Below, one piece after another: positions 21,767-37,598 of a stretch of 64,000 nucleotides of DNA. Under the pieces are notes generated by a model. It was not told the DNA's origin and did no database searches. It saw nothing but the letters and a program-made list of their open reading frames with translations. The stretch's first letter is position 1. Each line of letters begins with the position of its first letter. The translations under genes and the position numbers were made by a program. Source of the DNA: Acidobacteriota bacterium (GTDB taxonomy: Bacteria > Acidobacteriota > Vicinamibacteria > Vicinamibacterales > CAVVIG01); contig JAFDVO010000008.1 of the NCBI GenBank assembly GCA_018268955.1, forward strand, positions 22,988-86,987, given 5' to 3'.

Positions 21767-21784
21767 AATGAAGCGTCCGAGAGA

Positions 21785-21875: not shown

Positions 21876-21876
21876 T

Positions 21877-23049
21877 CTACGCGATCGTGATCTTCCTGGG
21901 GAACTGTCCGTTGTCCTCGAGGAACGTCTTCTTGTTCGCGAGGTCTGCGGCGGTCGGCTGCACGACGCCGTTGGTGTCCGTGACGCGCGAGACGAGCGTG
22001 TGCTCACCGGCAGCGGGGGTGTTCCAGTCGAACGTGAACAGCTTCCATCCGTAGGTGGCCGACGTGTCCGGCGAGAGCGTCGCCTTCTGCCAGGCTCCAC
22101 CGTCGACCTGCACCTCCACCGAGCGGATCGGTGTGCCGTCGTTCAGGACGAAGCCCGTGACCTTGTAGTTCTTGTTGCCGGAGGTGGTCACGCGTGCAAT
22201 CACCGACTTGAGCCGCATCTTCGAGACGCCGGTCTCCTTCGGCATCACGACGCCGCCGATGTTCTCCTCGCGCAGCGTGCGATACCAGCGCGTCTGGAAC
22301 TTGCCCATGTAGGGCTCGGCCTGCACGTGGATGTTGGACAGCCACTTCACGTTCGCGACGCCGTACCACCCCGGCACCAGCAGCCGGAGCGGCGAGCCCT
22401 GGTGGACCGTGAGCGGCTGGCCGTTGAGGGCCCAGGCGAGGAACGGCTCGCCCGACAGCGCCTGCTCACGCGTGAGGCTGCGGCCGAACTGCTGCTCGAC
22501 CGTGAACTTCTGGGTGCGCCACTCGATCTCTTCCTGTCCCTTGTCCGCGCCGAAGAAGACGAACTCTCGCGCGTCGCGCGAGACGCCTGCCTGATCGAGG
22601 ACGAGCCGCAGCGGGATGCCGGTCCACTTGCCGTTGCCCGCAAACCCCTGCACCAGCCGCGGGCTGTTGCCCGAGCACTCGAAGCCGGCGATCAGCTCGC
22701 GGTTGCCCATCTTCTTCAGATCGTCGAGCGACAGCGAGAGCGGCGAGGTCACCATGCCGCTGACCTTCAGGCGCCAGCTGGCGGCATCTACCGTGGGATG
22801 ACCGTAATGCTGCGTCGTGAAGAACTGATCGGGCGGCGTGTACGGGCCGTCGATCTTCCGGATGTCGTAGTTCCGGGTCGTGGCGTTCGGATTCGGGTTG
22901 AAGTTGGCAGGGAAGTCGCTGAAGGGCACCACGGTCTCGCCCTGCGCCAGCGCGGGGAGCGTGAACCCGGGGAGGTTGGCCACCGACAGGCCGATGCCGG
23001 CAAGGCCGAGCGTCTTCAGGATGTCGCGGCGCGACTGTGCAGGGGCCAT
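21877..23049 (-). CDS. Tat-exported molybdopterin-dependent oxidoreductase (sulfite-oxidase family)
   Basis: 390-aa ORF with the twin-arginine signal MAPAQSRRDILKTLGLAGIGL, GGAGGA upstream of the ATG, and Mo-binding plus dimerisation-domain-like sequence. Confidence 0.85.
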   Translation of the reverse strand: MAPAQSRRDILKTLGLAGIGLSVANLPGFTLPALAQGETVVPFSDFPANFNPNPNATTRNYDIRKIDGPYTPPDQFFTTQHYGHPTVDAASWRLKVSGMVTSPLSLSLDDLKKMGNRELIAGFECSGNSPRLVQGFAGNGKWTGIPLRLVLDQAGVSRDAREFVFFGADKGQEEIEWRTQKFTVEQQFGRSLTREQALSGEPFLAWALNGQPLTVHQGSPLRLLVPGWYGVANVKWLSNIHVQAEPYMGKFQTRWYRTLREENIGGVVMPKETGVSKMRLKSVIARVTTSGNKNYKVTGFVLNDGTPIRSVEVQVDGGAWQKATLSPDTSATYGWKLFTFDWNTPAAGEHTLVSRVTDTNGVVQPTAADLANKKTFLEDNGQFPRKITIA

Positions 23050-23164
23050 CGTTCGAAGATCCTCCAGGACCGCGTGTGCGGGTGCGTCCGTCCCTCATGG
23101 ACGTGAACGTCCGCGCGGATTCTAGCACGTCAGCACCGGAGCGCCGGACGGCCCCTCTGGTGGG

Positions 23165-23812
23165 CTACGGACGTGCGGACGTGACCGGCGCCTGGCAGTC
23201 GCGATCCCGGTTGACGCGAATGGGCCACCAGCGATCGAAGCCGTTCTCGGTGGCGCCGATCACCAGCACCGGCGAGATCAGCGCCGGGTCGTACTCGCCG
23301 ATGCCGGCCTGCTCCGGATGCTCGGGGATCAGGCTGACCCGCAACTGGTTGAACCCGGCCGACTCGAACGGCACGAAGTACAGGTCGGCTCGTCCCTCGG
23401 CGCCGTCCACCGTCTGGTGCGCCAGGCAGACCGGCTCGAACGCCTTGCCGCCGTCGAGCGCCGCATCCGCTGCCATGCGGTGGATCGAGTCCACGCCAAA
23501 GGCGCCCTGCAGCGCCTCATCGAATTCCGAGCGCAGGACGAGCGGGATTGCCGGGTGTGCAGGGGCGACGAGCGCGGCGCCCGCCCGCCTGGATACCTCG
23601 GCAAACAGCGAGGCGGTCAGCGTGTCCGGCGGCTTCACCGCGACAATCCACGGGTCGGTCCCATCACTCGTCACGAGCGTCCACCGCTCCGGCACCGTGG
23701 GTGCCACCTGCACCGGTGTCGAATCGACGCGATGGGTCACGTACCACGCGAGTGCGCCCCCGATGACGACGAGCAGCAGCAGGATGGGCAGGGCACGGCG
23801 CGCCAGGGACAT
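23165..23812 (-). CDS. Hypothetical membrane-anchored protein
   Basis: 215-aa ORF with one N-terminal helix (ALPILLLLVVIGGALAWYV). No family recognised. Confidence 0.6.
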   Translation of the reverse strand: MSLARRALPILLLLVVIGGALAWYVTHRVDSTPVQVAPTVPERWTLVTSDGTDPWIVAVKPPDTLTASLFAEVSRRAGAALVAPAHPAIPLVLRSEFDEALQGAFGVDSIHRMAADAALDGGKAFEPVCLAHQTVDGAEGRADLYFVPFESAGFNQLRVSLIPEHPEQAGIGEYDPALISPVLVIGATENGFDRWWPIRVNRDRDCQAPVTSARP

Positions 23813-23836
23813 GCCTCAATGCTACGGAGTAACGGG

Positions 23837-23948
23837 GAAATGCAGAAATGCACAAATGCAGAAATGCACAGGTGCAGAAACGCACAGACGCAGAAGCGCA
23901 CAGACGCAGAAACGCACGACCGCTGAAGTGCACACATGCGGAAGCGCC
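23837..23948. repeat. Fourteen in-phase octamers (GAAAYGCA/CAnAYGCA), alternating with a 16-nt super-period
   Basis: Units are gaaatgca gaaatgca caaatgca gaaatgca caggtgca gaaacgca cagacgca gaagcgca cagacgca gaaacgca cgaccgct gaagtgca cacatgcg gaagcgcc. Confidence 0.85.
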
Positions 23949-23976
23949 CGGCCCCGGAGACGATGGCGGAGACGCT

Positions 23977-24075
23977 GGAATGCAGGAAGGATGGAGGGGG
24001 AGATTGGAGGGTGGAGGTTGGGGTTGGAGTGGGGAACACCGGCTCCCTGCCCCGACCTCAGACCTCCGTCCTCTG
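23977..24075. repeat. G-rich TGGAGGN heptamers facing a C-rich partner (GACCTCN)
   Basis: G-rich side: ggaatgc aggaagg atggagg gggagat tggaggg tggaggt tggggtt ggagtgg. C-rich side: ccctgccccgacctcagacctccgtcctctgcc. The two sides are imperfectly complementary. Confidence 0.65.
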
Positions 24076-24096
24076 CCTTCGCTCGTGCCGCGAGCG

Positions 24097-24300
24097 CTAC
24101 TTCTTGATCTTCTCGCCGATGTCCTCGATGAACTCACCGGCCTTGCGACGGCCGCGGCCGATCGCATCCTGCGTGTCACCGGCGGCTTCATCGGCAATGC
24201 CTTCGTTCTTCATCCGCTCGTTGTCCGTCAGATCGCCCGCGGCCTGCTTCATCTTGCCCTTGAGCGCCTGTGCCTTGCCTTCCATCTCATCGCGGTTCAT
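24097..24300 (-). CDS. CsbD-family general stress protein
   Basis: 67 aa: MNRDEMEGKAQALKGKMKQAAGDLTDNERMKNEGIADEAAGDTQDAIGRGRRKAGEFIEDIGEKIKK. This is the typical CsbD pattern. GGAGGGG lies upstream. Confidence 0.9.
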   Translation of the reverse strand: MNRDEMEGKAQALKGKMKQAAGDLTDNERMKNEGIADEAAGDTQDAIGRGRRKAGEFIEDIGEKIKK

Positions 24301-24331
24301 GGCCCCTCCAATCCTGAATGGCAGCTGATGG

Positions 24332-24484
24332 CTAGACGACCGTCCTGCGTCCGCTGATGATGCCCACCAGGAACAGCACCAGCGCGATGACGAGCAGGAC
24401 GTGCACGATCGAACCGATCGTGTAGACGCCGACGAGCCCGAGCAGCCACGCGACGAAGAGAATCAGCGCGAGTGTGAACAACAT
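24332..24484 (-). CDS. lmo0937-family small membrane protein (50 aa); below the ORF-track size cutoff
   Basis: My own translation is MLFTLALILFVAWLLGLVGVYTIGSIVHVLLVIALVLFLVGIISGRRTVV*. A strong SD (GAGGAGGTAGAAGGAG) lies upstream. Two helices and a GRR tail are typical of this miniprotein family. Confidence 0.75.
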   Translation of the reverse strand: MLFTLALILFVAWLLGLVGVYTIGSIVHVLLVIALVLFLVGIISGRRTVV

Positions 24485-24681
24485 TGCTCCTTCTACCTCC
24501 TCATGCGGCGGCGTTCGGCCGTCGCGTTCAACGCTGAGGAGAACAGCAAAGGACGGGCCGGTCTTTACGGTTCAGCCACGAACTCGACAATGGGCAATTG
24601 ACGCCGAAATCGCAATGGTCCTGCTAAAGTGAAGAGCTCGTCAGGCCGACCTGCTTCACTCCTTGTTCACGCAGTCCTCAG

Positions 24682-26949
24682 ATGTTCCGATCTGTTTCCA
24701 TCGTTGGTGCCCTTCTCTGCCTCACCGCCTCGCTTGCCAGCGCGCAATCGTCAGGTCGCCAGCCTGCGGCGGCCACTGACCCGGTCGTCACCCGCACGCC
24801 GGAAGGGCAGGTGACGATACGGGCCATCCGCGTCGCGCGCCCTCTCGTTCTCGACGGCCAGTTGAAGGAGGAGATCTACGCGCAGGTGCCGCCGATCGAC
24901 GGCTTCCTCCAGCAGGAACCTCTCGAGGGCGAGCCGGCGACCGAACCGACTGAGGCGTGGCTGTTCTACGACGACCGATACATCTACGTCGCCGCGCACC
25001 TGCACGACTCGCAGCCCGACCGCGAGATCATCACCGAGATGCGGCGCGACGGTCAGGGGACGAACGACAACGAGAGCTTCGGCGTCGTGTTCGACACGTT
25101 CCACGATCGACGTAACGGATTCCTGTTCCAGATCAGCCTCGCTGGCGGCCTCTACGATGGCTACATCACCGATGAACGGGACATGAACCGTGACTGGAGT
25201 ACGGTCTGGGACGCGCGCACCGCCCGCGTCGACGACGGGTGGACGGTGGAGATGGCCATCCCTTTCAAGTCGCTCAGGTTTCCTCCCGGGTCGCACGACT
25301 GGGGTGTGAACCTGAAGCGCGTGGTGAAGTGGAAGAACGAGAACCAGTACCTTACCCGCATGCCGGGCGCCCTTGGTCGCCGCGCGATCAACAAGCTCTC
25401 GTCTGCCGCCACGCTGGTCGGCCTCGAAACGCCGCAGGCGCGCCGAAACTTCGAGCTGAAGCCCTACGCGATCGGCGGCGTCACCACCGATCGTCCGGTC
25501 GGCGCCTCCTCGTCGAACGCCGCGAAGAGGAACGTCGGCGGTGACATGAAGATCGGCATCACGGACGGCATCACGGCGGACGTGACGTACAACACCGACT
25601 TCGCGCAGGTCGAGGAAGACGAGCAGCAGGCGAACCTCACGCGCTTCAGCGTGCTGTTCCCGGAAAAGCGGGAGTTCTTCCTCGAAGGGCAGGGCATCTT
25701 CGCGTTCGGCGGCGTGTCGAACCGGCCTCCAGGATCGGGCGCAACCAACTTCGGCAATCCGATCCCCGCCGACGTGCCGGTGATGTTCTTCAGCCGACGC
25801 ATCGGGCTGCAGGACGGCAAGGAGGTCCCGATCGACGTCGGCGGACGCGTCACGGGCAAGGCTGGCAACTACAGCATCGGCGTGATCGACATCAGGACCG
25901 GCGACGTGCCCGCCCGCGCGCTCGACCCCACCAACTTCAGCGTGGTTCGGGTGAAGCGCGACATCCTCCGTCGCAGTGCGGTCGGCATCCTCTTCACCGA
26001 TCGCTCCCGCTCGACGTTCGGCCCCGGACACGGGAGCACGGTCGGCCTGGACGGCGTCTTCTCCTTCTTCCAGAACCTGAACTTCAACAGCTACGTGGCC
26101 GCCAGCGACAACCCCGGGCTCTCGGGCGAGAACCTCAGCTACCGCGGACAGCTCGATTACAACGCAGACAAGTACGGACTGCAGGTCGAGCGCCTGACGC
26201 TCGACCAGAACTTCCGTCCGGATCTCGCGTTCACCCGGCGGACCGCGTTCGCCCGCAACTCCGCGTATGCCAGATACAGCCCGCGCCCGCACTCGACGAC
26301 CGTGCGGAAGATGTTCTACGAGGCGCAGTTCGACTACATCACGGACCCGAGCAACCGCCTGCAGTCACGGCAGGCGCAGGTGGCGGTCCGCGCCGAGTTC
26401 CAGAACAGCGACGCGGCCGCGATCGAACTGCAGCAGAACTACGAGTCGCTTGACAAGCCGTTCGAGGTCTCGCCTGGCGTGTCCATCCCGGTGGGTGGCT
26501 ACGGGTTCCGTGAAGCGCACGTGATCTACAACTTCGGCCCGCAGCGTCCGCTCTCGGCGAACGTGTCGCTCGAGCGCGGCGAGTTCTACAACGGGACGCG
26601 CACCGGCGTCAGCGCATCGCGTGGGCGCGTGCAGATTACCCCGCAACTCATGGTGGAACCCGGGATCACCCTCAACATCGTCCGCATGCCGGAAGGGGAC
26701 TTCACGTCCACGCTGGTGACCGGCCGGGCGACCTACACCGTGACCCCGCGCATGAGCGCCAGCGCGCTGATGCAGTACAACTCCACCGCGAGCACGTTCA
26801 ACACGAACATCCGTTTCCGCTGGGAGTACCAGCCGGGCAGCGACCTGTTCGTCGTGCTCACCGACAACCGCGACACGCTGACAACCGGGTTTCCTGCGCT
26901 GCGCAACCGCGCGTTCATCGTGAAGTTCACGCGGTTGTTCCGCATGTGA
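24682..26949 (+). CDS. DUF5916 family protein with CBM9-like domain (paralog 4)
   Basis: Signal peptide MFRSVSIVGALLCLTASLASAQ. Conserved blocks WDARTARVDDGWTVEMAIPFKSLRF and TDFAQVEEDEQQANLTRFSVLFPEKREFFLEGQGIF. C-terminus TRLFRM. Confidence 0.9.
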   Translation: MFRSVSIVGALLCLTASLASAQSSGRQPAAATDPVVTRTPEGQVTIRAIRVARPLVLDGQLKEEIYAQVPPIDGFLQQEPLEGEPATEPTEAWLFYDDRYIYVAAHLHDSQPDREIITEMRRDGQGTNDNESFGVVFDTFHDRRNGFLFQISLAGGLYDGYITDERDMNRDWSTVWDARTARVDDGWTVEMAIPFKSLRFPPGSHDWGVNLKRVVKWKNENQYLTRMPGALGRRAINKLSSAATLVGLETPQARRNFELKPYAIGGVTTDRPVGASSSNAAKRNVGGDMKIGITDGITADVTYNTDFAQVEEDEQQANLTRFSVLFPEKREFFLEGQGIFAFGGVSNRPPGSGATNFGNPIPADVPVMFFSRRIGLQDGKEVPIDVGGRVTGKAGNYSIGVIDIRTGDVPARALDPTNFSVVRVKRDILRRSAVGILFTDRSRSTFGPGHGSTVGLDGVFSFFQNLNFNSYVAASDNPGLSGENLSYRGQLDYNADKYGLQVERLTLDQNFRPDLAFTRRTAFARNSAYARYSPRPHSTTVRKMFYEAQFDYITDPSNRLQSRQAQVAVRAEFQNSDAAAIELQQNYESLDKPFEVSPGVSIPVGGYGFREAHVIYNFGPQRPLSANVSLERGEFYNGTRTGVSASRGRVQITPQLMVEPGITLNIVRMPEGDFTSTLVTGRATYTVTPRMSASALMQYNSTASTFNTNIRFRWEYQPGSDLFVVLTDNRDTLTTGFPALRNRAFIVKFTRLFRM

Positions 26950-26967
26950 CGTCGTCGTGCTGTCGCG

Positions 26968-28686
26968 TTGGCGCGTTGCTCGCGCTATGCTCGCGTGGAG
27001 GTGCCCGTCTCCCAGAGTTCTTCCGGTCCCCTGAGCACGGCCGAGCGGCTCGCCGTCTCACTGCTGGCCCCATTCGCGACCGTCGTTGTCGCATCCTACG
27101 TTGCGGATCGGATCGGCTTGCGGTTCCTGCCGGTGCCGATGCTCGCGCTCGCCGTGCTCTCTGTCGTCGCGGCCGCTGCCGTCGTCCGTCCGGCCCTTCG
27201 AACTCGGACCGACGTCGCGCTGTTCCTCGCAGCGGTCCTCGGCGTCTTCGGCTGGCTGCTGTGGCTTGCCTCGCCAACGCTGTTGCCGCTCAGCACCGGA
27301 CCCGACCTCACGCACCATCTCATCCTGATCCGCTTCATCGAGGAGCACTGGCGCCTCGTGCACGACCCGTCGCTCGAGCGGTACCTCGGCGAGATGGCGC
27401 AGTACACGCCTGGCAGCCATGTGCTTTCGGCGCTTGCCGGAGCCTGGTCCGGCACTGACGGGCTGCGGGCGCTCCACACGGTGCAGGCCGCGACGGTCGC
27501 ACTGAAGTCAGGCTTCCTGCTCCTGACCGGCCTGCGCCTGCTTCCTCGAACCGCGCCCAGGCCTCTGGCACTGGTCGGCGTGGTGCTGCTGTTCGCGTCT
27601 CCTCAGTACTTCGTGCGCGGCTTCACCGAATTCGGCTTCGTCGCGCAGGTCGTCGCCGAGCTCTTCGTGGTCGCGATGTGGTGGGCCAGCGCCGCCTGGT
27701 GGCAGACGCCCTCGACCGCCCCTTTGCTGGTGTTTGCCATGGCGGGGTCGGCGACATTCCTCACGTGGCCGGTCTACGTTGGGGCACCCGCGCTTGCTGG
27801 AGGCGTGCTGGTGATGGCGCAGCGGCGGATGTCAGTGGCCTCCCGCGTTCGATGCCTGCTGCTGGCGTTCACGCCGATCGCGGTGGTGGCGGCCCTGTAC
27901 ATCCTCGGGCGTCTGGGATGGCTGCAACTGGCGGGCACTGGAGGCACGGCACCGTGGCCATCCATGTCCGCGTACGGTCCCGTGCTCGTCGCACTCGCGA
28001 CGCTCGGAGTCCTGGTTGGTCTGGTGCGCACGCGTGGGCTCGCAACCCTCGTGTTCCTGGCCTCTGCCCTTCTGCAGGCTGGTGCCTTCTTCATCCTTGC
28101 CCAACGCGCGGGAGCGCCTCAGCCCTACATGGCGTTGAAGATGGGGTACCTGCTCCTGTGGCCGATGGCCGCCTGCGCGGTGCTGGCGTGCGGAGCAGCC
28201 TGGGACGCCATGGCGAGCCGCCTCGGTGCCGGCGGCGGTGAACGTCGGGCGAGCGCGGTGGTGGCGTGGGCTGTGGTCATCGCGCTCGGCGTGATCGTTG
28301 GACGACCGCTCCTGCGCAATCCTCGCCTGCTGCATCCGTTGCCGCCGGCCACGTCGCTGCCGCTGTACGATGCGGGGCGCTGGGCTCGCGCGCACGTGCC
28401 CGCCCCATGCGTCGAGTATCTCGTCGGCGACGATGAGACGGCGTACTGGCTGCATCTCGCCGTGCTGGGCAACCCACGCATGTCCCCCCGCACGGGCGAC
28501 AACCGGACGTACGAGCCGACCGATGCGGTGGTTCGCTGGCTCACGCCAGGCGGTCTCCCGTACGCCATTGCGGACCTGCCCGCGCTGCCGAGGGGGGTGC
28601 GCGACGAACTCGACGTCATGCAGGCGTTCGGCACCGCCGCCGTCGTCCGGCGGCGAGGTCCGACCTCGTGTGACCCGTCGCGGTAG
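26968..28686 (+). CDS. Polytopic membrane protein of unknown family (GT-C-like glycosyltransferase is a guess)
   Basis: 572-aa ORF starting 18 nt after paralog 4 (TTG start; GTG 26995 is an alternative). More than 10 hydrophobic helices and a soluble C-terminal tail. Followed by a GT2 gene. Confidence 0.6.
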   Translation: MARCSRYARVEVPVSQSSSGPLSTAERLAVSLLAPFATVVVASYVADRIGLRFLPVPMLALAVLSVVAAAAVVRPALRTRTDVALFLAAVLGVFGWLLWLASPTLLPLSTGPDLTHHLILIRFIEEHWRLVHDPSLERYLGEMAQYTPGSHVLSALAGAWSGTDGLRALHTVQAATVALKSGFLLLTGLRLLPRTAPRPLALVGVVLLFASPQYFVRGFTEFGFVAQVVAELFVVAMWWASAAWWQTPSTAPLLVFAMAGSATFLTWPVYVGAPALAGGVLVMAQRRMSVASRVRCLLLAFTPIAVVAALYILGRLGWLQLAGTGGTAPWPSMSAYGPVLVALATLGVLVGLVRTRGLATLVFLASALLQAGAFFILAQRAGAPQPYMALKMGYLLLWPMAACAVLACGAAWDAMASRLGAGGGERRASAVVAWAVVIALGVIVGRPLLRNPRLLHPLPPATSLPLYDAGRWARAHVPAPCVEYLVGDDETAYWLHLAVLGNPRMSPRTGDNRTYEPTDAVVRWLTPGGLPYAIADLPALPRGVRDELDVMQAFGTAAVVRRRGPTSCDPSR

Positions 28687-28723
28687 GCGGAGGACCCGCC
28701 TCATCCGGGTATCATGAACGCGC

Positions 28724-29428
28724 GTGAACCCGCTGCTCTCGATCATCGTCCCGGTCTACAACGAAGAAGCGACCATCGGCGCCGTCCTGGATCGGCTGCT
28801 CGCCATCGGCTTTCCTGTCCCGATCGAAGTGATCGCGGTGAACGACGGCTCCCGGGATGGGACGGCGGCGGCACTGGACGCCGCGGCCGCACGGAGTCCG
28901 CTGATCACGGCCGTTCACCTCGAACGGAACGGCGGCAAGGGCATGGCGCTGCGTACCGGATTCGCGCGCACGCGGGGCTCGATCGTGGCGATCCAGGACG
29001 CGGATCTCGAGCTCGATCCGGCGCAGTTGCTCACGTTGATCGAGCCGATCCTCGCCGGGCGCGCTGACGTCGTCTACGGGTCGCGCTTCCTGAACGATGC
29101 CTCGCACGTGCCGATCGTCTCGCGGCTGGGCAACGCAGGGCTGACCTTCCTGACGAACCTCCTGTACGGCACCAAGCTCACCGACATGGAGACCTGCTAC
29201 AAGATCATGCGCGGCGACATCGCGCGAGGCCTCCGGCTCACCGCGAACCGGTTCGACATCGAACCGGAGATCACCGTGAACCTGCTCAAGAGCGGCGTGC
29301 GCATCATCGAACTGCCCGTCAGCTTCTCGCCACGCTCGCGGCAGGCTGGCAAGAAGATCCGCTGGCGCGACGGCTGGCACGCCGTGGACCTGCTCGTGCG
29401 GCATCGGTTCGGAGGCAGCGGCTCCTGA
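28724..29428 (+). CDS. Family 2 glycosyltransferase (polyprenyl-phosphate sugar synthase-like)
   Basis: GTG start. Contains LSIIVPVYNEEATIG, VNDGSRDGT and IQDADLE motifs. Confidence 0.85.
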   Translation: MNPLLSIIVPVYNEEATIGAVLDRLLAIGFPVPIEVIAVNDGSRDGTAAALDAAAARSPLITAVHLERNGGKGMALRTGFARTRGSIVAIQDADLELDPAQLLTLIEPILAGRADVVYGSRFLNDASHVPIVSRLGNAGLTFLTNLLYGTKLTDMETCYKIMRGDIARGLRLTANRFDIEPEITVNLLKSGVRIIELPVSFSPRSRQAGKKIRWRDGWHAVDLLVRHRFGGSGS

Positions 29429-29444
29429 CTGGCGGCGACACGGC

Positions 29445-29645
29445 AACGCAGGAACGCAAGAACGCAGAAACGCAAAAACGCAGGAACGCAGGAACGCAGG
29501 AACGCAACGCAAGAACGCAGGAACGCAAGAACGCAAGACAGCGCGCTGGAAGATTCACGCAGTCACGCACGAGCGATTGCAGCATTCGTGCGCTCCTGTG
29601 AGCGTGCATTGTTGCATTCCTGCATTCCCGCATTCCCGCATTCCC
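29445..29645. repeat. ~200-nt imperfect palindromic element whose arms are octamer arrays
   Basis: Left arm 29445-29538 has twelve units of AACGCARR/ACGCARGA. A central bulged hairpin lies around 29556-29604. Right arm 29606-29645 has five units of GCATTCCY, whose reverse complement (RGGAATGC) matches the left unit at 6-7 of 8 positions. The element fills the gap between convergent stops at 29428 and 29651. Confidence 0.85.
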
Positions 29646-29650
29646 CCGGG

Positions 29651-30067
29651 TCAGTGCTTCGCTGGGATCTTCAATACCTGGCCCACCTTGATCTTGTCGG
29701 GGTCTGAGAGCTGGTCGCGGTTCGCGTTGAAAACCTCCATGTAGGCGCCAGCACTGCCGAGGAACTCCTTGGCGATCTTGCTGAGCGTGTCGCCGCTCTT
29801 CACGGTGTACGTCTGTGGTGCAGTCTGCGCGGCCGCTTCACTCTGGGCTGCCGCAGCGGGAGCGGTGTTCAACGGGCGGATGTCGGCGATGATGTCGGTG
29901 CGCCAGCTCGGGACGGTCTTGATGGCGTCCCAGATCCGGTTTGCCTCCTCCTGGTTCTGCACCGTCCCGTGGAAATGGAGCTTGCCGTCACGCTCTTCGG
30001 CCGCTCCCTGCATGTGCAGGCTCTTCGCCACCTGAATGGCCGCCCCGTACGTATCTCGCAATCCCAT
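29651..30067 (-). CDS. BON-like plus LysM peptidoglycan-binding protein (YgaU-like)
   Basis: Lies in ORF 29651-30268; ATG 30067 was chosen (MGLRDTYGAAIQVAK...). C-terminal LysM: YTVKSGDTLSKIAKEFLGSAGAYMEVFNANRDQLSDPDKIKVGQVLKIP. Confidence 0.8.
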   Translation of the reverse strand: MGLRDTYGAAIQVAKSLHMQGAAEERDGKLHFHGTVQNQEEANRIWDAIKTVPSWRTDIIADIRPLNTAPAAAAQSEAAAQTAPQTYTVKSGDTLSKIAKEFLGSAGAYMEVFNANRDQLSDPDKIKVGQVLKIPAKH

Positions 30068-30231
30068 AAGCACCTCGTCTGGAAGTCGTGTGTCGACCAC
30101 GGATCTGCAAGCGACAGGCCTGAGTTGCGCTGTCCGCCGCACGTGACACGCGCTCGCGCACTCTCGAGTGGACAGGCGCCGCCAAGTCGTTGAATTCACA
30201 CGGGCGCGGCACTGGCAGCGGCGTTGCTGAG

Positions 30232-31011
30232 ATGCACACTCCTCCGCACCCGACCCTGTCCAGCCCACTCGATGTGGTGTTCGTCGAGCCCTTCGGAGGA
30301 AGTCGCGATCACCTCAGGCAACTGCTCGAGTTCGAAGGGCTTCGGATCGGGACGTGCTCGGGCGATCAACTCCTGCGCGCCGCCCCAAATCACCCAGTGC
30401 GCGTCCTCATCCTGGACGATGCATCGCTGGGCGAACGGACCGTGCCGGTCGTCGACGCGTGCACCACCGGTGCGCGTGTCCGCCTGCTGTTCCTCGCGCT
30501 CGTGCCTGCTGGCGCAGACGCCCGTGGCATCGAACTGGTCGAACGCGGAGTCGATGGGTTCCTGACGGTTCCGTGTGGGGGGCGCGAGTTCGTTGCGCGG
30601 GTTCGCGCCATGCTTCGGCGGCTCGACCGCGTGGAGCGCGCGCGCTCGCACGCGGAGCGGGTCGAGGAGAACGGCGGCGACCGCGTCGTCCGCGTACGTC
30701 AGCTCGTCGTGGACCCGGCGCGGCGGCGTGTCCGCGCCGCCGACCACGAGTTGCGCCTGACGGAGCAGGAGTTCCAGCTCCTGCATGTGTTCGTGTCGTC
30801 GCCGGGCCGCGTGTTCAATCGGCAGGCACTCCTCGATGCCGTCTGGGGACGCGACACGTTCGTCACGCTTCGCAGTGTGGACGCGCTCGTGAAACGGCTG
30901 CGGCACCAACTCCACCCCGCGCTTCCGCCGGATGTTCTGGAGACTGTCAGAGGCGTCGGTTACCGGCTCAACGAAACACGCCTCGGTGCAATCACGTCCG
31001 CGGAATGCTGA
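30232..31011 (+). CDS. OmpR/PhoB-type winged-helix regulator with a degenerate (pseudo-)receiver domain
   Basis: Lies in ORF 30190-31011 (TTG start; ATG 30232 preferred). C-terminal trans_reg_C: LRLTEQEFQLLHVFVSSPGRVFNRQALLDAVWG...VRGVGYRL. In the receiver, VVFVEPFGG replaces the acidic pair, VLILDD is retained, and the conserved T/S and K positions read LALV and LTVPC. Confidence 0.75.
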   Translation: MHTPPHPTLSSPLDVVFVEPFGGSRDHLRQLLEFEGLRIGTCSGDQLLRAAPNHPVRVLILDDASLGERTVPVVDACTTGARVRLLFLALVPAGADARGIELVERGVDGFLTVPCGGREFVARVRAMLRRLDRVERARSHAERVEENGGDRVVRVRQLVVDPARRRVRAADHELRLTEQEFQLLHVFVSSPGRVFNRQALLDAVWGRDTFVTLRSVDALVKRLRHQLHPALPPDVLETVRGVGYRLNETRLGAITSAEC

Positions 31012-31079
31012 GACACGAAGTCACAGATTTTTCACCGCGCCATCACACAGGTTCAACCGGCGACCGGTTCAATGGGAGC

Positions 31080-31514
31080 ATGTTGAGTTCGCGTGTGGCG
31101 GTCACGCTTGCGTGCGTCGCCACCTTCGCTGCCTCCGCCTGCGGCGGCACTGCATCATCGACCACATCGCCGTCCACGGTGGCGGCGGACGCCACGATCA
31201 ACGAAAGCTTCGGCGCCACCATCGACGTCGGCGGCGGCGTCTTCTACTCCTTCTCCATGCAGAGTTACGGCAACGTGGCGGTCACGCTGACCGCCGTCAC
31301 CGGGACCGACCTGCCAGACGACATCACGCTCGGTCTCGGCATTGGTCGGCCAAGCGGCACGTCGTGCACGACATCGTTGTCGACATCGGCCACGCCGGGC
31401 GCGACGGCACAGTTGACCGGCGTCTACGGGCCCGGTGTGTTCTGTGTCCGGGTGTACGACGCCGGCACGCTGAGCGCTCCCATCCAGTTCACGGCCTCGG
31501 TGGCGCACTCATGA
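31080..31514 (+). CDS. Small lipoprotein, paralog A (144 aa), unknown family
   Basis: Tail of ORF 30354-31514. GGGAG lies 2 nt before ATG 31080. Signal plus lipobox AASAC, an S/T-rich linker, then a ~100-aa domain with two conserved Cys. Confidence 0.7.
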   Translation: MLSSRVAVTLACVATFAASACGGTASSTTSPSTVAADATINESFGATIDVGGGVFYSFSMQSYGNVAVTLTAVTGTDLPDDITLGLGIGRPSGTSCTTSLSTSATPGATAQLTGVYGPGVFCVRVYDAGTLSAPIQFTASVAHS

Positions 31515-31951
31515 CGGCGCGGAATCGAGGCGTTGTCGCCGTGCTGCTCTCGTTGGTGGGGCTCGCCACCGGAGCGTGCGGAGGCTCGTCCACGACGTCC
31601 CCCTCCACGACGACAGCCACGGCATCCACGGAGCTCTTCACCGGGAACCTCTCGCCCGCCGGAACGGCTTTCTACTCCTTCACCGTGACGACTGCCGGCT
31701 CGGTTGCCGTCACGCTAGCCAGCCTGTCGTCCTCCACGATCGGCCCGGCCGTTCCGGTGACGCTGAAGGTCGGCGTCGGTGTGCCGAGCGGGTTCGGCTG
31801 CGCGACGGCCAGCGATGTGGACACATCGCCACGGCTGACGGCGCAGCTCACGGTATCTGGGGCGAAGGACAACATCTACTGCGTGAACCTGGCGGACCGC
31901 GGCGCGCTGCGATCGGACGTCCGGTTCGTCATCCGGATCGTGCACACCTGA
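31511..31951 (+). CDS. Small lipoprotein, paralog B (146 aa)
   Basis: Tail of ORF 30932-31951. ATG 31511 overlaps the paralog A stop (ATGA). Lipobox ATGAC. Same conserved pattern as paralog A. Confidence 0.7.
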   Translation: MTARNRGVVAVLLSLVGLATGACGGSSTTSPSTTTATASTELFTGNLSPAGTAFYSFTVTTAGSVAVTLASLSSSTIGPAVPVTLKVGVGVPSGFGCATASDVDTSPRLTAQLTVSGAKDNIYCVNLADRGALRSDVRFVIRIVHT

Positions 31952-31952
31952 T

Positions 31953-32360
31953 ATGAGAGCGCCGCTTCCCGTGCTTGCTGTCCTGCTGTGCACCCTCTGC
32001 GGCTGCAGCACCGGTACCACCACGTCACCGACGACAACGGTCACGGCACCGACGACCGACACGTTCGCGAGCCTGCTGGTGAGAGGGGGCAGCACGTCGC
32101 GCGCGTTCACGACGTCCACAGCGGGAACGGTGCGGGTGACCCTCACCGCGTTTGGGAACGGCGGCGTTCAGGCGGGAGTGGCGGTGGGGGTTCCTGCCGG
32201 AAGCGGACCCTGCAGCCCTGCGGTGTCGGTCGTGACCGCGCCAGGCGGGTCGCCGCAGATTACGACGTCGGCCGACGCGGGCAGCTATTGCGTGCAGGTG
32301 TTCGACCCGGGAACGCTTGCGGCGGACACGCCGTTCACGATCACGATCGAACATCCCTGA
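31953..32360 (+). CDS. Small lipoprotein, paralog C (135 aa)
   Basis: ATG lies 1 nt after the paralog B stop. Lipobox LCGC, T/S/P-rich linker, same conserved pattern. Confidence 0.7.
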   Translation: MRAPLPVLAVLLCTLCGCSTGTTTSPTTTVTAPTTDTFASLLVRGGSTSRAFTTSTAGTVRVTLTAFGNGGVQAGVAVGVPAGSGPCSPAVSVVTAPGGSPQITTSADAGSYCVQVFDPGTLAADTPFTITIEHP

Positions 32361-32369
32361 CGCCGGTGT

Positions 32370-32390
32370 GTCGCTCCGTCGCGGAGCGAC
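32370..32390. terminator. 9-bp perfect hairpin between convergent genes (possible bidirectional terminator)
   Basis: gtcgctccg - tcg - cggagcgac, 10 nt after the stop at 32360 and 8 nt from the stop at 32398. No U-tract. Confidence 0.45.
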
Positions 32391-32397
32391 GATCATC

Positions 32398-32679
32398 CTA
32401 CTTGGCGGCGTCGGCCTTGCGCCGCGCGGCCCAGTACTTCTTCATGCGGTCGGACACCGCCTTTCGGTCAGCCGCGGTCCACCCGCGCTTCGATACTGCG
32501 GGAGCGCCCTGCTTCGCGGAAGCCGCCTGCCGTGCCGGCGTGCGCTTCGCGCCCGCGGCTCCCCGGCGCAGGTCAGGGAACGTCTTGAAGATCGACTCGA
32601 GCTCGTTCTGCAGTTCCTGCACGCGTGCCACGGCGCCCGCCCGAGCGAGCCGAAGCAATTCTTCACGGGAGATAGCCAC
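32398..32679 (-). CDS. Small basic protein (93 aa) with a helical N-terminus and Lys/Arg-rich C-terminus; unknown family
   Basis: Lies in ORF 32398-32796. GTG 32679 is preceded by GGAGGA at about 7 nt. Sequence: (M)AISREELLRLARAGAVARVQELQNELESIF...RGWTAADRKAVSDRMKKYWAARRKADAAK. Confidence 0.6.
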   Translation of the reverse strand: MAISREELLRLARAGAVARVQELQNELESIFKTFPDLRRGAAGAKRTPARQAASAKQGAPAVSKRGWTAADRKAVSDRMKKYWAARRKADAAK

Positions 32680-32804
32680 GTTTGATCCTCCTGAGCTGAG
32701 TGTACCTGAGAAAACGCATGCGCTTCCGGGCCCGCGTATCAAAAGTGCGCCGTGAGCCGGGTCGATTGCATCGGCGCGCGCGACGTGCAGTAGCATCTTG
32801 GGCC

Positions 32805-34361
32805 ATGCGGAGACTCATTCAGCTCGCCTCCACGACCACAGTGGCGATTGTCGGCGCCTGTGGAGTCCATGTGTTCACGCAGGGCACCACGTCCACGCTT
32901 GCGGATTGCACCGTTGCGAGCCTGCAGGCGAAGGCGCCGGCGGGGACGACGATCACGGGTGCGAAGGTGGTCGACGGTTCCGATCGAGTGCCGCGGCATT
33001 GCCAGGTGGATGGGCATGCTGCGACTCCTGGCAATGAGGTCAACTTCCGGCTTGGCTTCCCCGAGCGCTGGAACGGCAAGTACTACTTCGTAGGCGTCGG
33101 CGGCCTCGGCGGCAGCATCGGCTCACTGAACAAGGGGCTCGAGCGCGGCTACGCATCCGCATCCACCGATACCGGACACAGCGCGGACGATCAGAGCTGG
33201 GGCTCGAACCGCGCGAAGGAAATTGATTACGGCCATCGCGGGACGCACGCGACCGCCGTGGCGGGGAAGGCGCTCGCAGGCGCGTTCTACGGGCGCGCGC
33301 CGCAGCACGCCTATTTCGAAGGCTGCTCCAACGGCGGCCGGCAGGCGCTCATGGAAGTGCAGCGCTATCCGGAGGATTTCGACGGGATCATCGGCGGCGA
33401 TCCTGCCACCGGCACCCCGATGCAGGTGGGACGGGTGCTCGTCTATCAGAAGATGCTCGCGAAGCCTGAGAACTTCCTGCCCGCAGAGAAGATCGAGCTG
33501 CTCTCGAAGGCGACGCTGGCCGCGTGCGACAAGGCGGACGGCCTCAAGGATGGACTCGTCACCGATCCGCGTCGGTGCTCGTTCAAGCCCGAGTCGCTGA
33601 AGTGCAGCGGGGCCGATGGACCGAACTGCCTGAACGACGGACAGCTCGCAGTCGTGAAACAGATTTACGAGGGAGCCTCCATCAACGGCGAACCGTACGC
33701 GTGGGGGTTCCCGGTCGGGCACGAGGGCAGTGCCACGGGGTGGCGCGCGTGGATCTCGGGTCCGGAGGATCCGACGACGCAGGCGGACGGCACGCTCGCC
33801 TATACGGGGCGGCGGCTGCCGAGCGGGTACGGGCTCGCCGAGTCCAACATGCGATTCCTCGCGTTGGAGAACGACGATCCGGCTTTCAACTGGCGTGTCT
33901 TCAGGTTCCCGCAGGATCTCGCCCGGATGAAGACCATGAGCGACATCCTCAGCCCGCTCGATCCCGATCTGCGTCCGTTCAAGAACCGCGGCGGGAAGCT
34001 GCTCCTGTACCACGGATGGTCGGATCCGGCGATCAGCGCGTACGGGACCGTCGGCTATTACGACCGCGTGCTGAAGACCGTCGGCGGCCAGCAGCAGATG
34101 GACGTGTTCGCGAAGCTGTATCTCGTCCCTGGCATGCATCACTGCAGTGGCGGCCCAGGCCCGAACGAGTTCGACATGCTCACCGCTCTGGAGAACTGGG
34201 TGGAGAAGGGGCAGTCGCCGGGACCGGTGGTCGCCACACACCGCGAGAACAACGCGGTCACCCGCACGCGGCCGCTGTGTCCGCATCCGCAGGTCGCCCG
34301 CTACAGGGGGACGGGGAGCATCGATGACGCCGCGAACTTCACGTGCGAGGTGCCGCGGTAG
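32805..34361 (+). CDS. Tannase/feruloyl-esterase family alpha/beta hydrolase, secreted
   Basis: Lies in ORF 32700-34361; ATG 32805 gives MRRLIQLASTTTVAIVGACG. Nucleophile motif FEGCSNGGRQALMEVQRYPEDFDGIIGGDPA. Confidence 0.85.
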   Translation: MRRLIQLASTTTVAIVGACGVHVFTQGTTSTLADCTVASLQAKAPAGTTITGAKVVDGSDRVPRHCQVDGHAATPGNEVNFRLGFPERWNGKYYFVGVGGLGGSIGSLNKGLERGYASASTDTGHSADDQSWGSNRAKEIDYGHRGTHATAVAGKALAGAFYGRAPQHAYFEGCSNGGRQALMEVQRYPEDFDGIIGGDPATGTPMQVGRVLVYQKMLAKPENFLPAEKIELLSKATLAACDKADGLKDGLVTDPRRCSFKPESLKCSGADGPNCLNDGQLAVVKQIYEGASINGEPYAWGFPVGHEGSATGWRAWISGPEDPTTQADGTLAYTGRRLPSGYGLAESNMRFLALENDDPAFNWRVFRFPQDLARMKTMSDILSPLDPDLRPFKNRGGKLLLYHGWSDPAISAYGTVGYYDRVLKTVGGQQQMDVFAKLYLVPGMHHCSGGPGPNEFDMLTALENWVEKGQSPGPVVATHRENNAVTRTRPLCPHPQVARYRGTGSIDDAANFTCEVPR

Positions 34362-34452
34362 GGCGGAGGGCAGAGGTCAGGTCGGAGGTTGGAGGTCGGA
34401 GGTTGGGCCCAGAGCCCGGAGGCTGAAGCCCGGAGCCCGAAATCTCCAGGTT
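34362..34452. repeat. Thirteen in-phase heptamers starting at the first base after the stop codon
   Basis: Units are ggcggag ggcagag gtcaggt cggaggt tggaggt cggaggt tgggccc agagccc ggaggct gaagccc ggagccc gaaatct ccaggtt. The first half is GGAGGTY in the sense of the plus gene. The second half reads GGGCTYC in the sense of the minus-strand tRNA. Confidence 0.8.
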
Positions 34453-34464
34453 CTTGCGTGCTGA

Positions 34465-34553
34465 TGGTGCCGGAGGTGGGAATCGAACCCACACGAGGAG
34501 TAAACCTCACGGGATTTTGAGTCCCGCGCGTCTGCCAGTTTCACCACTCCGGC
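34465..34553 (-). tRNA. tRNA-Leu (anticodon CAA), with long variable arm and encoded CCA
   Basis: The reverse complement is GCCGGAGTGGTGAAACTGGCAGACGCGCGGGACTCAAAATCCCGTGAGGTTTACTCCTCGTGTGGGTTCGATTCCCACCTCCGGCACCA. The acceptor stem pairs GCCGGAG with CTCCGGC, the anticodon loop is CTCAAAA, the T-loop is GGTTCGATTCC, and the extra arm is class II. Confidence 0.95.
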
Positions 34554-34943
34554 GTCGAAGACAGAAGAGCAGTATACCGCGTCGTTCTGCGCCGGGACCG
34601 TGCACTCCCCACGACCTCGGCCGGGGCGTTTCCCAGTGCTCCGCGACGGTGCAGCCACGATTCCCCTGACTCGCCTGCGCTGTTGCGATGGCGGCCGGCG
34701 CGCCCCGCGAGCCGTGTACGAAAGTCGCTCCCAGCCAAGCCCTCCGATCGATCCCGGCCAATGGCGCAGCTCGCGTTGAACTCGAGCGGCACAGCTTCGC
34801 CACAACGTGCCTCTCCGCAGCAGCTTAGCCCCATCTGGCCGAGGCGGACGCACGGGTCGGGCGTGGGTCCGCCGCGGTAAGATCAGCAGGGTGGAAGCAG
34901 AGGCGAAAGTCGCTGAATTGCGCCTGTTTTCGAGGATTTCAGG

Positions 34944-34972
34944 TTGTGGGCCTGTACGGCGTCGGCTATACT
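34944..34972 (+). promoter_or_regulatory. Candidate sigma-70-type promoter for carD
   Basis: TTGTGG (34944-34949), a 17-nt spacer, then TATACT (34967-34972), about 110 nt upstream of the carD GTG. A similar TATACT lies on the minus strand at 34571-34576, 17 nt upstream of the tRNA 5' end. Confidence 0.45.
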
Positions 34973-35084
34973 GAGTGAACTGCCGGTACTGCCTCCGCCG
35001 AGGCTCCGGCTGGTCTCGCCGAAGCGTAGGCGCGAAGGCTGAGTTCATCGGCCTACCATCCAGTAGCTCCTGACAGGGGGAACC

Positions 35085-35687
35085 GTGATATTTGAAGTCG
35101 GCGACAAGGTCATCTACCCGAATCATGGTCTTGGAATCGTGGAGCGGATCGAGGAGAAGACGATCCTCGGTACTACCTGCGGTTTCTACCATCTTCGGAT
35201 TGTGGCCAACGACACCACCGTGCTCGTGCCCGTGGCAAATGCCGATGGCGTCGGGTTGCGGCGCGCCATCAGCGACGAGGACGTCGATCGACTGTTCGGG
35301 CTTCTCGGTGACGGTCAGATCGACAATCACCAGAATTGGAAGGGGCGGTTCAAGGACAACTCGGACAAGATGCGCAGCGGCTCGATCTACGACGTCGCGG
35401 ATGTGTTGAAGAGCCTCACGTTCCTGGCGAAGTCGAAGAGCCTCTCGTTCCGCGAGAAGCGCATGCTCGATCGCGCGAAGTTCCTCATCATCTCGGAAGT
35501 CTCGGAAGTCATGTGCGAGAAGGCTGCGGCCATCGAGGACCGCGTCGATCGCGCACTCGAGCAGTGCTTCACCACGAAGGCCCGTGCTGCGGCACCGCGC
35601 CCGAAGGTGAGCCGCACCGCCGCCGTGCCGCCACCGCGCGCGCAGGCCGCATCAGCCGCGCGTCGCACCGCGCGCGCCGCGTCGTAA
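35085..35687 (+). CDS. carD: CarD/CdnL-family RNA-polymerase-binding transcription regulator
   Basis: GTG start after GGGGGA. Sequence FEVGDKVIYPNHGLGIVERIEEKTILGTTCGFYHLRI...MRSGSIYDVADVLKSL matches CarD_CdnL_TRCF. Ala/Arg-rich tail. Confidence 0.9.
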   Translation: MIFEVGDKVIYPNHGLGIVERIEEKTILGTTCGFYHLRIVANDTTVLVPVANADGVGLRRAISDEDVDRLFGLLGDGQIDNHQNWKGRFKDNSDKMRSGSIYDVADVLKSLTFLAKSKSLSFREKRMLDRAKFLIISEVSEVMCEKAAAIEDRVDRALEQCFTTKARAAAPRPKVSRTAAVPPPRAQAASAARRTARAAS

Positions 35688-35712
35688 GCCGCGCGCCACT
35701 CACGCCCGACAC

Positions 35713-35742
35713 AGCCCGCCGGCTCAGCCGGCGGGCTTTTTT
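35713..35742 (+). terminator. Intrinsic terminator after carD
   Basis: agcccgccggc - tca - gccggcgggct (11-bp perfect GC-rich stem) followed by tttttt. Confidence 0.85.
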
Positions 35743-35759
35743 CGTTATGATGCAGCCCG

Positions 35760-36491
35760 GTGATCATTCCGGCGCTTCGCACGGTCGCGACGTACGTGGC
35801 CGTTTCCCTGTACGTCCTCGTTGCTGGACCGCTGGGCATGCTCCTGGCGCTGCTGTTCCGGTGGAAGGACCTGCTCTACATCCTCGGCCATCTCGGCGTC
35901 AGGCTGGCGCTCTTCACGACCGGCATCCGATTCCGGGTGCGGGGGCGCGAGCACCTGCCTCTCGACCGGGCGGCGGTCTACTGCTCGAATCACCAGAGCA
36001 ACGTCGACCCGCCCGTGCTCTTCGAGGCGCTGCATCCGAGGATGCACATCCTCTACAAGCACGAACTCGATCAGATTCCCATCCTGGCGCGTGCGTTCAG
36101 GCTTGGCGGGTTCATCCCTGTCGATCGCCGCAATCGCGACGCCGCGATGCGCTCCATCGAGAACGGCGCGCGTGCGATACGCTCCGGCAGTTCGTTCCTG
36201 ATCTTCCCTGAAGGGACCCGCAGCAGGACCGACGAGTTGCTGCCGTTCAAGAAAGGCGGCATTCACATGGCGATCCTCGCGCAGGCGCCGATCGTGCCGG
36301 TCGCCATCCGCGGAGGCCGCGCTGCGATGCAGCGTGGCAGCTGGCTCATCCACCCGGTCGTCGTCGACATCGCCGTGGGAGCACCGGTCGAGACGGAAGG
36401 GCTGACCTCGAACGATCGCGACACGCTCATCGCGGAGGTCCGCGGGCGTATCGAGGCGTTGGTGAGCGACCTCAAGCAAGAGCGCGCGTAG
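35760..36491 (+). CDS. plsC: 1-acyl-sn-glycerol-3-phosphate acyltransferase
   Basis: GTG start. HX4D motif NHQSNVDPPVL and FPEGTRSR motif. N-terminal membrane helix. Confidence 0.85.
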   Translation: MIIPALRTVATYVAVSLYVLVAGPLGMLLALLFRWKDLLYILGHLGVRLALFTTGIRFRVRGREHLPLDRAAVYCSNHQSNVDPPVLFEALHPRMHILYKHELDQIPILARAFRLGGFIPVDRRNRDAAMRSIENGARAIRSGSSFLIFPEGTRSRTDELLPFKKGGIHMAILAQAPIVPVAIRGGRAAMQRGSWLIHPVVVDIAVGAPVETEGLTSNDRDTLIAEVRGRIEALVSDLKQERA

Positions 36492-36506
36492 CGACGTTCG
36501 TTCGCC

Positions 36507-37598
36507 TCATCCCGTCTCGAACGTGAGCGTCCAAGGCGCGAGCGGCAGCTTGTCGGTCCCGAGGATGCCGTCCTGCAGTTCGATGACGACCTTCGAGAAG
36601 CGATCGAGCGGCGAGGCGAACCGGATCTCCAGCACGCGGTTCCCGGGTAGGTAGGTGATCGTGAAGGGCACTGGCGAGGCGTTCCCGCTGGCATACCGCG
36701 CGGCGATGCGATTGCGGAACGTCGCCGGGTCCATGTCCCGCGAGAACTGGATCCGCACAGTGGTGGTCGGCAGGACGTCGGTCTCGCCGCCGATCGGCGC
36801 GCTGAAGACCACCTCTGGCGGCGGCGCAGCGGCCACTCGTATGACCGGCTGATCGGGCGTGTCCTGCGGCGCGGTGGTGATCTTGATCGTCGCGCCTTCT
36901 GCGTTGAGCCACTGCAGCCCACGGCCCTGCTGCAGCGTCCCCGAGACCTCGATCCAGCGGCCGGTGTCGATCCGCGAGTCGAGCGCCAGTTCGAAGTCCT
37001 TGCCGCGCGGTCGCAGGTTCGTCACCCACACAGCGGCGTCGGCGGACCGGACCACGAAGTCCCACCGGCTCTGGCCTGGTGCGTCCGGCAGGTCACCGAG
37101 CAAATTGCGTGCGCCGAACTGCCCGACGACGGTCACGCGTTGATCGAGGTAGCGCGAAGGAAACAGGACGATGTTGCGGATCGACGGCGCCGATGGTGGC
37201 GAGACTGGCGAGACCGAAGACGCGATGAGCGCGGTCGCCTGGCCGCTTCGAGGCCAGGGGCCCGCCGGATCGACGCCGAAGGTCCGCTTGAGATCGTAGC
37301 CCGCGAGCCGGGGGTCGTCTGCCGTGAACTTCCCCAGATCCCAGAACTCGCCGCGCACCTCGACGAGACCGTCGGCGGTGCTGCCCTTGCTCACCACGCG
37401 GAGCGAGAGGCCGTCGCTGGTCAGCCGGTACTCGCCCGTGTCCAGCAGCTTCATCTCCCCGACGACCATCACAGGGCGCGTGTGGAAGAACTCGGCGTGG
37501 GCGAGCAGGGCAGCGACGTTCGTGGCGCGCCGCGTTGCACTTGGCTGCGCGCCGGCGACGCTGGCGACGAGCACACACAGCAGTATCAGTCGTTTCAC
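36507..37598 (-). CDS. Secreted hypothetical protein with C-terminal SbsA/Big_5-like Ig domain
   Basis: Lies in ORF 36507-37751; GTG 37598 gives the signal peptide (M)KRLILLCVLVASVAGAQP. C-terminal block PPPEVVFSAPIGGETDVLPTTTVRIQFSRDMDPATF. Confidence 0.65.
   Translation of the reverse strand: MKRLILLCVLVASVAGAQPSATRRATNVAALLAHAEFFHTRPVMVVGEMKLLDTGEYRLTSDGLSLRVVSKGSTADGLVEVRGEFWDLGKFTADDPRLAGYDLKRTFGVDPAGPWPRSGQATALIASSVSPVSPPSAPSIRNIVLFPSRYLDQRVTVVGQFGARNLLGDLPDAPGQSRWDFVVRSADAAVWVTNLRPRGKDFELALDSRIDTGRWIEVSGTLQQGRGLQWLNAEGATIKITTAPQDTPDQPVIRVAAAPPPEVVFSAPIGGETDVLPTTTVRIQFSRDMDPATFRNRIAARYASGNASPVPFTITYLPGNRVLEIRFASPLDRFSKVVIELQDGILGTDKLPLAPWTLTFETG

Follow-up and report, generated by a model that had tools for sequence, protein, structure and literature searches.

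Results

Two Octamer Arrays in the Spacer between Convergent Genes

The window, the whole 64,000-nucleotide stretch of DNA analyzed here, comes from a soil/sludge acidobacterium and is 99.93–100% identical to contigs of the Vicinamibacterales (Acidobacteriota) MAG GCA_046331445.1 (GC ~66%). Within it, a GT2 glycosyltransferase gene on the forward strand and a LysM-domain gene on the reverse strand converge on a 222-nt spacer (Table 1). A previous reading made from the sequence alone had placed a palindromic element of ~200 nt with octamer-array arms between the two stop codons, and we found both the location and the inverted structure to be correct: two convergent tandem arrays of 8-nt units span positions 29445–29645.

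The left array was reported by TRF at 29445–29535 with period 8, 11.8 copies, and a score of 119 (consensus AACGCAGG). Unit by unit, it consists of seven octamers from 29445, a truncated AACGC carrying a 3-nt deletion (29501–29505), and four further octamers; what the sequence-only reading had taken for a 6-nt slip at 29501 is this 5-nt unit, and the arm ends at 29537 rather than 29538. In the right array (TRF 29605–29645, period 8, 4–5 copies, scores 52–57, consensus GCATTCCC), the five octamers previously described were recovered, reading GCATTGTT, GCATTCCT, and three times GCATTCCC on the forward strand.

In the sense of GT2, the left array reads GGAACGCA on a strand of 74% purine and begins 16 nt after the GT2 stop; in the sense of LysM, the right array reads three times GGGAATGC, then AGGAATGC and AACAATGC, and its end lies 5 nt from the LysM stop. 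As had been noted before, both arrays are GGAAYGCR in their own gene's sense, 5–16 nt past their own gene's stop, and the units of the two arms match at six to seven of eight positions. The arms are 77–81% complementary over 30–32 nt, and the TRF match rate of the arrays is 83–95%. In the center, the bulged hairpin of the previous reading was seen in the sequence as well as in the folds, with cacgc/gcgtg, tcac/gtga, and gcacg/cgtgc pairing; decayed unit-like pieces are found on its left side (CACGCAGT, CACGCACG) and right side (GCGTGCAT).

Matches to a double unit with zero to two mismatches were confined, within the window, to the element and to 23837–23852. With up to three mismatches allowed, the window contained 28 matches compared with 12.2 ± 3.4 in shuffled sequences, and none of the 100 shuffles reached 28. 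At least 10 independent assemblies (NCBI, ENA, Logan, JGI) contain the identical 222-nt spacer, which is therefore not an assembly artifact. A coding role of the arrays was rejected because their period is not a multiple of three, and two reverse-strand ORFs running across them (29319–29633 and 28712–29536) were discarded as they lie opposite the GT2 gene, itself well supported, and overlap it.

Table 1. Genes and short-unit arrays of the window, with the evidence for each
Feature	Position	Strand	Description and evidence
GT2 glycosyltransferase gene	28724–29428	+	PF00535, E = 1.5e-31; stop 29426–29428; called likewise in public assemblies
Left array	29445–29537	+	11 octamers AACGCARR and a truncated 5-nt unit; TRF and unit table
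Center	29538–29605		Nonrepetitive bulged inverted repeat; direct sequence reading and pairing in folds
Right array	29606–29645	-	Five octamers, G-rich strand is the - strand; TRF and unit table
LysM-domain gene	29651–30067	-	PF01476, E = 7e-12; stop 29651–29653; 138 aa per public gene callers
Related 14-unit array	23837–23948	+	GAAAYGCA alternating with CAGACGCA; TRF and pattern matches
Same-class arrays	16812–17096		CGTTAGA/AGAACTY after + gene; GGGCNNT/GCTYTGG (- reading) after - gene 17107–18009
Same-class arrays	34360–34439		AGGTYGG x6 after the stop of a tannase-family gene, then GCCCRGA x5 facing tRNA-Leu
Same-class arrays	54179–54340		AGAACTC x3 after + gene; CCAACCT x15; TRF score 163
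Same-class array	58512–58586		TTCACCAA x9.4 between divergent gene starts; TRF

Other Short-Unit Arrays of the Window

Arrays with a period of 7–8 nt were detected by TRF in seven spacers, namely the five regions 16812–17096, 29445–29645, 34360–34439, 54179–54340, and 58512–58586 together with 21846–21876 and the compound spacer 23837–24073; downstream of the stop at 11272 there is a further, decayed run of heptamers. Of the ~19 intergenic regions in the window that measure 100 nt or more, 7 bear arrays. Several units recur: AGGTYGG and TCYGGGC/GCCCRGA at three loci each, AGAACTC and GRAAYGCA at two. The last of these includes the array at 23837, which had been assigned to the same unit family as the element, an assignment that held (TRF periods 8, 16, and 32). 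A reverse-strand gene (23165–23812) starts 24 nt from this array, which lies upstream of it with the purine-rich strand antisense to the gene.

The compound spacer is flanked by two reverse-strand genes, CsbD and one encoding 215 aa. Besides the GAAAYGCA/CAGACGCA array, which shows a 16/32-nt super-period, it holds AGGTTGG-like heptamers and CCGACCT units, and the AGGTTGG block is among the few arrays violating the polarity rule given below. The array of 15 CCAACCT units reads AGGTTGG in the sense of a reverse-strand gene (54373–55476). The TTCACCAA array begins within the first codons of the reverse-strand gene 57842–58519 and takes up the divergent promoter region that precedes the forward-strand gene at 58624, a position from which it could alter the expression of both genes if its unit number varies. 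Canonical four-tract G-quadruplex (G4) motifs were found on the reverse strand at 17011–17096 (GGGCNNT and GGGCTNNGG types; motif 17017–17096) and at 54225–54249, the start of the CCAACCT array, and both G4-bearing strands are sense to the neighboring reverse-strand gene.

At the tRNA-Leu gene (CAA; 34465–34553, reverse strand), two strain contigs (L003, 11289–11560; L006, 6213–6592) match the window up to 34523–34525, a point within the gene, and past it the two contigs match neither the window nor one another. This pattern has the signature of an attachment site, and the 3′ part of the tRNA gene may have received different integrated elements in other strains.

Polarity of the Arrays Relative to Neighboring ORFs

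The orientation of the window arrays follows a simple rule in nearly all cases: the 5′ end of the G- or purine-rich strand adjoins the nearest ORF, so that this strand is the sense strand after a stop and the antisense strand before a start. With gene calls that for all polarity statistics were crude (long ORFs and a GC3 filter), the rule was obeyed by 11 of 13 clearly skewed arrays of the window, judged by purine fractions, and by 17 of 24 skewed arrays in loci chosen by GT2 homology alone. Both arms of the element obey it, and for this reason they face each other. Each array in the other two-array spacers of the window obeys it as well, with units that differ between the two arrays, and those spacers are therefore not palindromic.

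The sequence-only reading had allowed for a one-off local duplication; arrays of GGAAYGCR turned out to be common in metagenome contigs. A metagenome scan for three consecutive units gave at least 120 contigs, with GC contents from 30 to 70%. Among the matches listed, 52 nonredundant arrays had a confident ORF within 100 nt; the polarity rule was obeyed by 44 of these 52 (p = 4e-7), 41 adjoined the 3′ end of a gene, and the median distance to the ORF was 17.5 nt. Paired arrays among the matches listed were convergent, with the G-rich arm first, in eight cases and divergent in none. The same scan of viral contigs gave one match, too few for a comparison with permuted units. An apparent coding occurrence, a four-unit run of CGCGTTCC within an ORF of ~400 aa, is conserved in three soil contigs (L101, ~4814–4845; L110; L124).

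The recurrence of GGAAYGCR in contigs of 30% to 70% GC hints at a preference for this unit, as might be expected if the arrays formed a 3′-UTR binding platform for a sequence-specific protein, such as a CsrA-type GGA binder, or for a DNA-acting nucleoid protein. The CAGGAAY and GGAGGT contained in sense-strand units are presumably similar to the GGA motifs found in CsrB-type sponge RNAs, which would be a further point for a putative platform of this kind. Other unit families of the same genome are without GGA, however, and within the element the motifs would be buried in a long duplex; we consider a binding platform highly improbable.

The Locus in Relatives and Strains

In the five nearest relatives (L011, L012, L222, L223, and L224; GT2 identity 83–88%), the stops of GT2 and LysM overlap (L011, L222) or are 12 to ~40 nt apart (L224, L223, L012). 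Two of them, L012 and L223, carry only a plain GC-rich hairpin, GACGCG..CGCGTC, at the same site. The short or overlapping stops indicate that the 222-nt array spacer is a recent gain specific to this species. A database of 5.8 billion proteins yielded no GT2 relatives of 88–100% identity.

The absence of the whole spacer from every near relative would also fit the insertion, between the stops, of a MITE-like miniature mobile element with the octamer arrays as its terminal inverted repeats. The architecture of terminal arms around a unique center is of the expected kind, and an inverted array pair sits within coding sequence in another genome (L040, below). Against this, no flanking direct repeat or target-site duplication is visible at the element, and BLAST found no second copy of the ~67-nt center in the window or in 225 loci. 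The arm units vary from locus to locus and change in unit steps, which is typical of slippage and not of transposition, and a mobile element appears scarcely credible to us.

Within the species, the 12/5 allele is dominant. Strain L010 has 6 in-phase left units in place of 11 and the truncated one, which makes it 45 nt shorter (five units plus the 5-nt unit), and its right-arm units are different; L006/L094 differ by one unit substitution. Between strain L002 and the window, every indel over 20 kb falls within the array at 23837, where L002 shows a 32-nt deletion (four units, one super-unit), a one-base shift, and clustered substitutions. Unit number thus varies among strains at both arrays, and the independent gain and loss of units that had been proposed from the unequal arms agrees with the L010 and L002 alleles. 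Every left unit has C where the equivalent position of every right unit has T, and this fixed difference points to internal homogenization and to independent concerted evolution of each array.

The arrays are the main indel hotspots between strains and could serve as strain markers. They are also breakpoints of short-read metagenome assemblies: contigs from independent samples end in the left or right array (L004, L007, L009, L010, L096–L098, and L100).

Across the loci chosen by GT2 homology, arrays of 7–8 nt are common in Vicinamibacterales and in other Acidobacteriota and rare in other phyla. Complementary inverted pairs of the same unit were also found in L025, L026, L033, and L040. In the last, a Vicinamibacterales genome, an inverted heptamer pair (TCGGGAT x9 and CCGAATC x4) lies inside the GT2 homologue at 6152–6275; the ORF stays open and gains ~35 residues (…GTRESGFGNRDSGFGIRKSG…SESRIPTPESR…), and its C-terminal tail (~6790–6831) is likewise array derived. 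In-frame invasion of coding sequence by arrays is thus possible.

Folding and Terminator Searches

We folded both strands of the element, as had been suggested previously. The RNA of the LysM-sense (reverse) strand folded at -114.6 kcal/mol (z = -7.6) and that of the GT2-sense (forward) strand at -79.7 kcal/mol (z = -2.1), and the ranking of the strands was unchanged with DNA parameters. The arms differ by two transitions, and these account for the asymmetry by giving G·U pairs on one strand and C·A mismatches on the other; as it comes from two events only, it is no evidence of selection. No consistent preference for the transcribed strand was seen among 14 other inverted array pairs.

A terminator scan of positions 20001–40000 found none in 29429–29650, and the element stem has no U-tract after the hairpin; the scan detected a canonical terminator after carD (35713–35737). 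In the window, the Rfam 15 scan identified tRNA-Leu only. The sole Rfam match in the element was to a plant miRNA hairpin model, at 27.6 bits against a gathering score of 124.

The strong reverse-strand fold invites the explanation that the element is a selected bidirectional terminator or RNA-stabilizing hairpin, its long stem needed to block convergent transcription between the two genes and to shield the 3′ end of each. With Rho-independent bidirectional terminators, the element shares its placement as an inverted repeat between convergent genes; arrays of the window are enriched between convergent genes (borne by five of seven convergent regions, compared with 2 of the 12 other regions; Fisher p = 0.045), pairs of convergent arrays are found again at other loci and in other phyla (PMC4692102), and the simple hairpin of L012 and L223 stands at the same site. 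It differs from such terminators in lacking flanking U/A tracts, in the negative scan, and in its ~40-bp imperfect stem made of tandem units.

The comparison with other loci also goes against a selected terminator. The closest relatives, L011 and L222, cope with overlapping stops and no spacer. The two arms of the element follow separate evolutionary courses; they are 12 and 5 units long and show a fixed C/T difference. Most of the two-array spacers of the window are noncomplementary (16812/17011, 34360/34407, and 54179/54234). In L221, a stop is followed first by 19 perfect GGAATGCA units, next by a distinct canonical terminator, and then by a tRNA; the array there is accordingly not the terminator. 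Taken together, we regard selection for such a hairpin as possible but unlikely.

G-quadruplex or i-motif regulatory elements, as proposed for GGGNATC repeats, were also considered. In the LysM sense, the right-arm unit GGGAATGC equals the Xanthomonas GGGAATC plus one base, the Xanthomonas and Nostoc units form G4s in vitro (PMC4692102), and full motifs of four G3 tracts occur in the two other window arrays described above. The element itself has no canonical four-tract G4: its reverse strand contains only three tracts of three or more Gs, its left arm has GG tracts only, and the forward-strand arrays are without a G3 tract, a lone GGG lying beyond them at 29648. Several co-resident unit families are not G-rich (AGAACTC, TTCACCAA), and we judge a G4-based role of the element very unlikely.

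Discussion

The phrase "one palindromic element" is better replaced by two convergent simple sequence repeat (SSR) arrays, each tied to its own gene end. In our assessment, the element is likely a convergent pair of long-unit SSR arrays of GGAAYGCR, one past the GT2 stop and one past the LysM stop, each oriented so that its G- or purine-rich strand is sense to the gene it follows. It would belong to the same class as the GGGAATC repeats of Xanthomonas and the GGGGAYT repeats of Nostoc, its palindromy would most simply be a by-product of the polarity, and its hairpin would possibly act as a 3′-end barrier.

Under this explanation, arrays would arise and change length through slipped-strand events, a mechanism suggested by the observed pattern of unit changes. 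If two arrays, one at either end of a short convergent spacer and each bound by the polarity, used the same favored unit, they would necessarily be inverted, and the polarity rule combined with a shared unit is the most likely reason for the palindromy. One same-unit pair among four to five two-array spacers would be about what random pairing among ~5 unit families predicts. Transcription of both genes into the element would then allow the arms to pair in RNA as a long imperfect hairpin, which in the LysM sense is predicted to be fully paired with G·U wobbles. Such a hairpin plausibly serves as a 3′-end barrier or stabilizer between the convergent genes. The relatives do without it: at this site their stops overlap, or a simple hairpin rich in GC is present. 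Counting against the independent origin of the two arrays, the locus-specific units of the complementary pairs in L025, L033, and L026 suggest that some such pairs may share a common origin.

A wider reading is that the polarity is general whatever the unit, in Acidobacteriota, Xanthomonas, cyanobacteria, and many uncultured lineages, and that it reflects a process tied to the end of translation. Arrays and convergent pairs would in that case be widespread, fast-evolving, and unrecognized gene-end elements rather than neutral microsatellites. Two candidate processes may be envisaged, one in which slippage or expansion is promoted by R-loops or G-structures of the G-rich transcript, newly free of ribosomes past the stop, and one in which selection favors a modular 3′-UTR insulator. 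We offer this generalization tentatively and think it quite unlikely.

Comparison with Known Repeat Systems

The phenomenon is not confined to this unit or this genome, and the class that the convergent SSR arrays would join is already known from Xanthomonas and Nostoc (PMC4692102). Rehm et al. (2015) described intergenic heptamer repeats, GGGAATC in Xanthomonas and GGGGAYT in Nostoc/Anabaena, including the cyanobacterial STRR heptamers (PMC4692102). Xanthomonas has ~186 arrays per genome, 89–93% of them intergenic, and the repeats lie either in sense orientation no more than 50 bp from a stop or antisense upstream of an ORF, with 70–75 convergent pairs per genome (PMC4692102). Unit number varies extensively among close relatives, the arrays are transcribed, and their function is unexplained; an origin by polymerase slippage is a hypothesis relayed there from a 2007 survey (PMC4692102).

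With these repeats, the window arrays share the head-to-tail arrangement of a short G-rich unit, the intergenic location, and the polarity toward ORF ends. They share the convergent plus/minus pairs able to form stem-loops, as seen in the complementary arms and the hairpin folds, and the variation in unit number, as seen in L010 and L002 and in the absence of the spacer at 83–88% identity. The left and right arrays, 16 and 5 nt from the stops and both sense, lie within the known distance, and the array at 23837, 24 nt before the start of a reverse-strand gene, fits the antisense upstream position. Compared with the unit consensus GGGNATC/GGGGAYT, the right arm GGGAATGC is GGGAATC with one inserted base and the left arm is GGAACGCA; GGGAATC/GGGATTC units themselves are found in the Vicinamibacterales relative L040.

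Long-unit SSRs of prokaryotes provide a second comparison. Huang and Mrazek (2014) found such repeats (7n3/8n3) to be over-represented in the intergenic DNA of some phyla; in their survey, representation in the four acidobacterial genera available at the time was normal (0.00) for both 7n3 and 8n3, and polarity relative to ORFs was not described (PMC4060949). Tandem units of 7–8 nt, length polymorphism, and a proposed slippage origin are common to those repeats and ours (PMC4060949). The arrays of the window show the near-perfect iteration and the whole-unit indels of slippage-type SSRs (32 nt, or four units, in L002; L010 in phase).

The TAACTGA intergenic direct repeats of Beggiatoaceae and cyanobacteria, for which a posttranscriptional role was proposed, are similar in being abundant intergenic heptamers common to distant phyla (PMC4679880). 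They differ in having one fixed unit, two to six copies per set, and one indirect repeat in 170 sets (PMC4679880).

Relative to the class of Rehm et al., the element differs in its period, which is 8 in both arms and not 7, while heptamer arrays occur in neighboring spacers of the window. Its left arm is without a G3 tract and the element as a whole falls short of the four G3 tracts of a canonical G4, the host is acidobacterial, and at least five unrelated families of 7/8-nt units coexist in 64 kb with no single dominant unit. The density is apparently much higher as well, at 7 array-bearing spacers per 64 kb compared with ~186 arrays per 5 Mb. The class is thereby extended to include octamers as well as heptamers, Acidobacteriota as hosts, units that lack G4 potential, and genomes in which several unit families occur side by side at high density. 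That a non-G4 unit keeps the same polarity over contigs of 30–70% GC, among the matches listed, argues against G4 as the unifying feature and suggests a mechanism linked to the boundaries of ORFs; the polarity rule itself is the point of greatest interest.
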